Source: a virus
Taxonomy: Duplodnaviria; Heunggongvirae; Uroviricota; Caudoviricetes
Virus record (IMG/VR): IMGVR_UViG_2534681999_000015
DNA: 6,618 bases
Strand: one strand, 5' to 3'
Below are positions 6,123 through 6,539 of the stretch, piece after piece; positions within the stretch are counted from its first letter, which is position 1; every line of letters starts with the position of its first letter. Below the pieces are notes generated by a model that made no database searches, had not been told where the DNA came from, and saw only the letters and a list, made by a program, of their open reading frames with translations. A program made the position numbers and the translations under genes.

Positions 6123-6152
6123 GTTAAGTAGGATTGCTGCGGGTGCTTGAGG
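6123..6152 (+). other. 5' leader element of the hok mRNA, complementary to the 3' end (6493-6514); fold-back-inhibition (fbi)-type long-range pairing
   Basis: GUUAAGU (6123-6129) pairs with ACUUAAC (6508-6514); GCGGGUGC (6139-6146) pairs with GCACCCGC (6500-6507); UUGAGG (6147-6152) pairs with CCUCAA (6493-6498). That is 21 bp in total with one bulged C (6499) and a 9-nt internal loop, across about 350 nt. This is the architecture described for plasmid R1 hok mRNA. Confidence 0.5.
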
Positions 6153-6190
6153 CTATCTGCCTCGGGCATGAACACCAACGGCAGATAGAT

Positions 6191-6255
6191 AAAAGCCCCA
6201 CCCGACTATAAATCGAAGTGAGGCCCCTATATGCTCGTCACATATAGATTGCCTC
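6191..6255 (-). ncRNA. Candidate Sok-like antisense RNA antitoxin (boundaries approximate)
   Basis: Expected position for Sok: antisense to the leader and the mok SD/start (6218-6233). On the minus strand a hairpin GCCUCAC...GUGGGGC (complement of 6218-6224 and 6195-6201; contains a G-U pair that is a C-A mismatch on the plus strand) is followed by UUUU (complement of 6191-6194). A possible -35 TTGACC lies at complement of 6269-6274, but no convincing -10 was found. Confidence 0.35.
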
Positions 6256-6443
6256 TTACGGACCGAAAGGTCAAGGAGAAGCAGGCTATGAAGCAGCAAA
6301 AGGCGATGTTAATCGCCCTGATCGTCATCTGTTTAATCGTCATAGTGACGGCACTGGTAACGAGGAAAGACCTCTGCGAGGTACGAATCCGAACCGGCCA
6401 GACGGAGGTCGCTGTCTTCACAGCTTACGAACCTGAGGAGTAA
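6231..6443 (+). CDS. mok-like reading frame (in-frame N-terminal extension of hok; proposed translational-coupling ORF)
   Basis: ATG 6231 with GAGG (6220-6223) upstream. N-terminal extension MLVTYRLPLTDRKVKEKQA resembles the MokC N-terminus as I recall it (MLNTCRVPLTDRKVKEKRA). 70 codons ending at the hok stop, the same geometry as mok/hok. Confidence 0.5.
   Translation: MLVTYRLPLTDRKVKEKQAMKQQKAMLIALIVICLIVIVTALVTRKDLCEVRIRTGQTEVAVFTAYEPEE
6288..6443 (+). CDS. hokD: Hok/Gef-family type I toxin (small membrane protein), 51 aa; closest to HokD/RelF
   Basis: SD AAGGAG (6273-6278), ATG 6288. Product MKQQKAMLIALIVICLIVIVTALVTRKDLCEVRIRTGQTEVAVFTAYEPEE: a single transmembrane helix followed by the conserved RKDLCEV...TEVAVF motif. 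Essentially identical to E. coli HokD as I remember it, with one or two conservative differences. Confidence 0.9.
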   Translation: MKQQKAMLIALIVICLIVIVTALVTRKDLCEVRIRTGQTEVAVFTAYEPEE

Positions 6444-6511
6444 GAGACCAGGCGGGGGAGAAATCCCTCGCCACCTCTGATGTGTCAGGAATCCTCAACG
6501 CACCCGCACTT

Positions 6512-6539
6512 AACCCGCTTCGGCGGGTTTTGTTTTTTC
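6512..6539 (+). terminator. Rho-independent terminator at the 3' end of the hok transcript
   Basis: Hairpin AACCCGC-TTCG-GCGGGTT (6512-6529) with a TTCG tetraloop, followed by TTTTGTTTTTTCT. Confidence 0.8.

Follow-up and report, generated by a model that had tools for sequence, protein, structure and literature searches.

Fold-back inhibition of the hok mRNA through tac/fbi pairing has been established for plasmid R1 since the 1990s. The tac/fbi interaction and the mechanism of R1 hok/sok are described in PMC9841398. For a second described system, hokW/sokW, experiments have established type I toxin-antitoxin function with a requirement for RNase III and Hfq (PMC8621323); the ends of hok mRNA are not mapped in that paper. 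Here we describe a locus of this kind at the end of the window, by which we mean the whole 6,618-nt stretch of DNA that was analyzed. We consider it very probable that at the end of the window a lambdoid E. coli prophage carries a canonical, complete hok/mok/sok type I cassette of the HokD/HokW type, that the mRNA of this cassette begins at about G6141 and is clamped by tac/fbi pairing, and that a further 7-bp complementary block is made of promoter DNA and linker and is likely a coincidence. Features lie on the plus strand unless otherwise noted.

Locus and prophage setting

Assignment to the hok/mok/sok family is based on a match to the Rfam sok/hok-leader model, a match to the Pfam HOK_GEF model, and hokD, gef or hokW annotation in database records that are 85-99% identical to the locus. 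The Rfam model (RF01794) matches 6141-6290 at 103.9 bits. Its family name is "sok antitoxin", and the match is to the plus strand, which is that of the hok mRNA leader and not the strand transcribing antisense Sok. A hok toxin ORF (6288-6443; 51 aa, HokD-like) was found in the ORF list together with an overlapping mok ORF (6231-6443; 70 aa), which a frame check showed to be in frame with hok and which has its own Shine-Dalgarno (SD) sequence, GUGAGG (6218-6223), 7 nt upstream of the mok ATG. The hok/mok product matches HOK_GEF (PF01848) at E = 1.7e-21, as expected of a small hydrophobic Hok/Gef toxin. The Hok protein has 669 database relatives, with PF01848 present in all among the matches listed. 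The matches listed in the protein homology search comprised only near-identical Hok proteins and added no diversity.

The window represents the early region of a lambdoid E. coli prophage, with genes for an HTH/CI-type repressor, a YdaT-like protein, DnaT-domain and lambda-P-like replication proteins, a DUF1627 protein and the adhesin Paa. The paa gene lies directly upstream of the hok cassette in the same orientation. Its product (5194-5952) is an AcfC-family adhesin with an SBP_bac_11 fold, a virulence-associated prophage cargo gene, and a weak terminator-like hairpin (5959-5972) occurs between paa and hok. Near-identical E. coli chromosomal DNA (98.8-99.6% identity) is annotated hokD, and 4734 of 5426 complete E. 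coli genomes have a match to the cassette.

In order to compare copies of the locus, 116 related loci (given L numbers below where needed) were gathered from IMG/VR, one-genome-per-species contigs and annotated records. The diversity came from scans of viral and genome contigs, and an alignment (A1) was built of the 87 distinct versions that span the whole transcript region. Two Hok sequences that are 93-98% identical to that of E. coli, each on a tiny contig of a non-enterobacterial assembly (L091, 275 bp, Acinetobacter idrijaensis; L095, 431 bp, Xanthomonas pisi), are most likely E. coli contamination of those assemblies.

Complementary blocks and fold-back helix

A preliminary description of this DNA reported three exactly complementary blocks between the hok leader and the 3' end of the transcript, and all three are exact at the positions given there. 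GTTAAGT (6123-6129) is the reverse complement of ACTTAAC (6508-6514), GCGGGTGC (6139-6146) that of GCACCCGC (6500-6507), and TTGAGG (6147-6152) that of CCTCAA (6493-6498), for 7, 8 and 6 bp, respectively. The blocks are separated by 9 nt on the 5' arm (6130-6138) and by a 1-nt bulge, C6499, on the 3' arm; an additional T6138-A6508 pair would lengthen the middle block to 9 bp. Of the 21 bp reported, 12-14 belong to the fold-back helix, and the other 7 are in the promoter, outside the transcript.

The helix pairs the tac element GGGUGCUUGAGG (6141-6152), which forms the inferred 5' end of the hok mRNA, with the fbi element CCUCAA-C-GCACCC (6493-6505), in which C6499 is bulged. The RF01794 model also starts at 6141. 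Minimum free energy (MFE) folds generated with ViennaRNA paired 6141-6152 with 6493-6505 for every assumed 5' end (6141, 6139, 6123 and 6120), with pairing probabilities of 0.97-1.0. Across the 87 distinct homologues, pairing amounts to 99.2% for the core helix (6141-6146/6500-6505) and to 95.2% for the adjacent helix (6147-6152/6493-6498), a figure lowered by the Photorhabdus rows of A1, which have no bulged C and are off by one column in the CCUCAA block. This was settled by an alignment-free duplex search, in which the 12-nt 5' end was complementary to a site in the 3' UTR over its full length, or in a few cases over all but one nucleotide, in 85 of the 87 versions. The pairing is kept across Escherichia, Kluyvera, Photorhabdus, Pantoea and Erwinia, for example as GGGCGCUUGAGA with UCUCAAGCGCCC or as GGGUGCUUGAGA with UCUCAA-C-GCACCC. 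A covariation analysis, which the preliminary description had proposed as a check, found compensatory changes within the fold-back helix (U6144-A6502 to C-G in six of the 87 sequences, G6152-C6493 to A-U in four) and none in the 7-bp block. The proposed identity as a tac/fbi fold-back structure is thus upheld for the whole 6-bp block and for six of the pairs in the 8-bp block, on folds, conservation and covariation alike, but not for the 7-bp block.

A few copies depart from this pattern. The only two of the 87 homologues that have no good fbi site are L092 (E. coli ECDA1023) and L111 (Shigella flexneri). The 3' UTR of L092 gives way to CATAAGCGCTAACTTAAGGGTTGAAC, which we take to be the end of an IS186, an element also reported at K-12 hokC. 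In L085 (E. coli ECMA0423), GACTGCATGTGGCTATGTGCC is found in the tac region in place of GACTGCGGGTGCTTGAGGCTATCTGCC while fbi is intact, and this is probably a decayed copy.

The remaining elements of an R1-type hok mRNA were predicted in the window. In the nascent transcript, tac is predicted to form a metastable 5' hairpin (6143-6169) with the sequence just downstream of it (6143-6153 with 6159-6169), and the fold of 6141-6172 has a free energy of -18.8 kcal/mol (z = -5.4); the R1 equivalent is described in PMC9841398. Consistent with the R1 architecture, the predicted partner of a ucb (anti-SD) element (6193-6201) is the mok SD in the full-length RNA and tac once the 3' end has been truncated. 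In the full-length fold, 6195-6201 pairs with 6218-6224, and five of the six bases of the mok SD have an unpaired probability near 0, A6221 being an unpaired bulge. The preliminary description had also suggested folding the RNA with and without its 3' end; when the 3' 40-46 nt are left off, tac does move onto ucb, with 6141-6148 paired with 6193-6199 in the truncated folds. A GC-rich stem-loop (6451-6472) is, based on its fold and on R1 analogy, the expected protective 3' end of the processed mRNA. The R1 equivalent of this stem is needed for stability of the truncated mRNA (PMC9841398). Finally, a terminator scan placed an intrinsic terminator at 6512-6538, with a stem (6512-6518/6523-6529; pairing probability 0.92-1.0), a TTCG loop and a T-run to 6538. 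The hairpin before which the 3' complement had been placed is therefore real, although the 3' arm of the 7-bp block does not precede it entirely and shares its first three stem bases (6512-6514).

Based on these elements and by analogy with R1 (PMC9841398) and hokW (PMC8621323), we propose that the hok mRNA would extend from G6141 to the terminator, ending close to 6538. Pairing of its first 12 nt (tac) with fbi would clamp the full-length molecule while ucb (6195-6201) hides the mok SD, and the clamped RNA would be inert to both ribosomes and Sok. Exonucleases would then slowly shorten the 3' end as far as the 6451-6472 stem and take away fbi, upon which tac would re-pair with ucb (6193-6199). 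Unpaired probabilities did not clearly show an opening of the mok SD upon truncation; because they are ambiguous, this step is based on the R1 precedent, in which the refolding frees the mok SD. The refolded RNA would then either be translated into Mok and Hok, or be bound by Sok and decay via RNase III. In this scheme the 12-bp end pairing with its conservation and covariation, the alternative tac/ucb pairing, the hiding of the SD in the full-length fold and the promoter footprint are computed results, and the 3' processing, the effects on translation and the part played by Sok are drawn from R1 and hokW.

Promoters, transcript start and the upstream block

The hok promoter was placed by phylogenetic footprinting and by comparison with R1. 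A -10 element, TAGGAT, occurs at 6129-6134, where every one of the 87 distinct homologues has TAnnnT. The pattern is confined to the -12 to -7 register, in which the hexamers agree with TATAAT at 4.9 of 6 positions on average, against at most 2.7 in any neighboring register. The -10 is TAGAAT in 63 of the 87, and others have TATAAT, TACAAT, TATATT, TAAAAT or similar sequences. The hexamer is followed by 6 nt and then by an invariant GGG, and R1 has TATGAT at an equal distance from its +1. A probable -35 element, TTTGCT (6106-6111), was read from the sequence, with 17 nt between it and the -10; the match is weak, and homologues have TTTGCG or TTGGCG at the aligned position. A consensus promoter scan of 5900-6618 called no sigma-70 site, the -35 being too weak for its threshold.

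The preliminary description had put the 5' end of the mRNA near 6120-6123. This is contradicted by the conserved -10, which ends 6 nt upstream of G6141 with R1-like spacing, and the earlier estimate is off by ~20 nt. In distant relatives any of the four bases (G, A, C or T) can follow fbi opposite -1, while -1 itself remains C. Taken together, the conserved -10 register, the R1 spacing and this varying base make G6141, give or take a base and 7 nt after the -10, the most likely start of the hok mRNA. Most of the prophage clade could also pair G6139 and C6140 with 6506-6507, which makes a start 1-2 nt farther upstream possible. This extension (6139-6140/6506-6507) is 79% paired and shows one-sided changes only. 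The 8-bp block thus probably contributes six transcribed pairs, with G6139 and C6140 upstream of the transcript.

Several other features of this region were observed. TAGGAT serves as the -10 only in the window and in one other distinct homologue (L003), and the A-to-G change at 6132 may weaken the promoter of the window copy. At 6490 the window has an A where every relative has C (GCATCC); together with G6132, A6490 gives 9/10 complementarity of 6130-6139, in the -10 region, with 6486-6495, just 5' of fbi. This complementarity is probably irrelevant, since 6130-6139 lies upstream of the proposed +1. A perfect 24-bp palindrome, CCGATATGGGAATTCCCATATCGG, is found at 6072-6095, ~10 nt upstream of the hok -35, and might bind a protein or form a hairpin. 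Its GAATTCCCATATCGGG flank also occurs in L002, L003, L004, L020, L027, L039, L046, L048, L064 and L075.

A Sok-like antisense RNA is predicted on the minus strand with approximate ends at 6191-6239, coordinates transferred from the sokW annotation of 933W that fall within the RF01794 match. It has a -35 element, TTGACC, at 6269-6274, and its fold (-18.7 kcal/mol, z = -4.0) has a stem followed by UUUU at the end. The putative sok -10, CAATCT (6246-6251, minus strand), is a poor match to the consensus, so that the hok and sok -10 elements are both weak in the window copy. Compared with 933W (TAACCT) and R1 (TATCCT), one nucleotide is deleted here, leaving CAATCT, and the same deletion is seen in the hokC-type loci L092-L094. 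In addition, ~21 nt of leader near 6203-6204 (A1 columns 88-108), present in 933W and most prophage copies, is missing from the window and from L002, L003, L027, L040 and L068. The predicted Sok is therefore ~49 nt, versus 71 nt.

The weak promoters bear on the idea that the locus is an evolutionary relic, a status suggested for chromosomal hok loci: the complementarity would be inherited, but production of a regulated toxin would have been lost. The departure of the hok -10 from the TAGAAT of most homologues and the poor sok -10 would fit such a history, as would the finding, quoted in a passage of bioRxiv 10.1101/2025.08.07.668861, that chromosomal hokA, hokB and hokC did not mediate post-segregational killing. 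Against it, tac, the metastable hairpin, ucb, the mok SD, in-frame mok and hok, the stem at the end of the truncated mRNA, fbi and the terminator are all intact, and hokW/sokW, at 85% identity, is a working toxin-antitoxin system in which Hok toxicity and its neutralization by Sok have been demonstrated (PMC8621323). We therefore regard a relic as very unlikely.

The 5' arm of the 7-bp block (6123-6129) occupies promoter spacer from -18 to -12, with its last T being the first base of the -10, and is judged to lie outside the RNA helix. Its 3' arm (6508-6514) is the linker between fbi and the terminator, with its last three nucleotides in the terminator stem. Both arms are present in 47 of the 87 distinct homologues, or in 50 if three carrying one G-U pair are counted. 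Ten homologues keep ACTTAAC with the 5' arm replaced (GATAGTT, TTTTTGT, AACGGGT, CTTTAGT, GAAAGAT, GGTAAGT), and five keep GTTAAGT with the 3' arm changed (ACTAAAC twice, GCTTTAC, ACGTAAC, CATAAAG). The preliminary description had held that mutation of one block with no compensation in its partner would speak against its reading, and these 15 one-sided changes, with no compensatory change, are of that kind. Both arms are changed in two more versions (TATCGGT with ACTAAAC), in which only 4 of 7 positions pair, and in relatives beyond the E. coli prophage clade the "paired" positions number only 2-5 of 7, near the chance level. The pairing probability of the block was 0.0001-0.008 for RNAs begun at 6123, 6100 or 5975, whether they stop at the terminator or read through it. 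Forcing the pairing costs +4.2 to +6.4 kcal/mol, partly because the block competes with the terminator stem.

It had also been argued that complementarity of such length is not expected by chance. This is borne out for the 14-bp part by its conservation, covariation and pairing probability of ~1, but the 7-bp block by itself is weak evidence. The 669-nt region 5950-6618 contains eleven exact 7-nt inverted-repeat pairs. When random segment pairs from the window were used as the 30-nt 5' flank and 15-nt 3' flank of the helix, a 7-bp match occurred in 1.6%, and in 0.4% if the 3' arm was required to abut the helix. Such a chance match at this position is uncommon without being striking. The 7-bp complementarity is most likely coincidental and was fixed a single time: every copy that has both arms falls within one closely related prophage lineage, which suggests that it arose once and was then inherited.

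Two proposals would give the block a role in transcripts begun upstream of the hok promoter. In the first, the block and the 2-3 bp just upstream of +1 would act only in such transcripts, produced by read-through from paa or antiterminated early transcription, and would keep hok silent during induction. The position of hok downstream of paa in the same orientation within a lambdoid early region, the weakness of the hairpin after paa, and the production of HokW upon prophage induction (PMC8621323) are all compatible with such transcripts. The block nevertheless has a pairing probability of only 0.0001-0.004 in modelled RNAs 5975-6538 and 5975-6618, in which the core helix is at ~1; it shows no covariation, and several prophage copies of the same clade have no 5' arm. 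We consider this proposal very improbable. In the second, the extra complementarity upstream of +1 (GTTAAGT/ACTTAAC plus TGC/GCA) would have been selected in the E. coli prophage lineage because it lengthens the clamp in induction transcripts. If true, this would represent a prophage-specific extension of fold-back inhibition, and we judge it highly improbable.

The reading of the preliminary description itself, a transcript from ~6120-6123 in which all three blocks form one 21-bp clamp with a 9-nt internal loop, draws on the exactness of the blocks, on the retention of both 7-bp arms in more than half of the homologues, and on an adjacency of block and helix that would be a 0.4-1.6% coincidence. 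It would, however, require transcription of a block that lies at -18 to -12 and overlaps the conserved -10, and it is opposed by the uncompensated changes in 15 homologues. The 7-bp pairing is also missing from every MFE fold of RNA that includes the block, has a probability below 1% in competition with the terminator stem, and is absent from R1 and all relatives that are not of the E. coli type. This reading is exceedingly unlikely. The 7-bp inverted repeat was also considered, and rejected, as the boundary of a mobile hok cassette, as homology between copies reaches the -35 region upstream and extends past the terminator downstream.

The tac/fbi mechanism at this locus is already known and the locus is very common, and the analysis has little importance beyond correct annotation. 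Its gain is a corrected map of the window copy, with the promoter, +1 near 6141 and exact coordinates for tac, ucb, fbi and the terminator. It also provides an example of how inspection of a single sequence can stretch a genuine RNA helix 7 to 9 bp into promoter DNA.

Comparison with R1, hokW and hokD

For comparison with R1 hok/sok (parB), an R1-type hok locus was taken from a plasmid collection; it is a 100% match over 433 nt to the R1 hok sequence, and its numbering was checked against positions G4, C5, T6, A70, G105 and A106 of PMC9841398. The order of elements is the same in R1 and the window: -10, +1 seven nt later, 5'-most tac, metastable hairpin, ucb, mok SD, hok, stable 3' stem, fbi and terminal hairpin. 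In R1, TATGAT is followed by 6 nt and by the +1 G of the tac element GGCGCUUGAGG, which corresponds to GGGUGCUUGAGG of the window, and the tac/fbi helix begins at +1 in both. The two loci are identical at 215 of 437 aligned positions. They differ in that mok and hok are in frame in the window and out of frame in R1, and in that the window has a HokD-type protein, a bulged C in the helix and a shorter leader, and is carried by a prophage and not a conjugative plasmid.

The annotated hokW/mokW/sokW locus of Stx phage 933W and Sakai prophage Sp5 shares 85% nucleotide identity with the window over most of its length, and the tac and fbi core is identical. In contrast to the window, 933W retains the ~21 nt of the leader/Sok region, and its fbi is followed by GCGCTTTACC, with no hairpin terminator at that position.

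The hokD (relF) locus of the K-12 Qin prophage type is 98% identical over the hok coding region and the 3' UTR, including fbi, ACTTAAC and the terminator. Promoter, tac, leader and sok are missing from these copies, whose match to the query begins only at position 215, whereas the window cassette is complete. Four of the collected loci (L041, L045, L086 and L099), presumably K-12 Qin-type hokD copies, have unrelated sequence upstream of hok and an fbi with no partner; the E. coli-type L041, L045 and L086 keep fbi, ACTTAAC and the terminator, and L099 (Kluyvera) has only a diverged fbi. The "gef" phage-maintenance locus of the O157 prophage PPompW (for example, LC567826.1) is 99.4% identical over 95% of the query, with a few substitutions and different sequence downstream of the terminator, and is effectively the same element.
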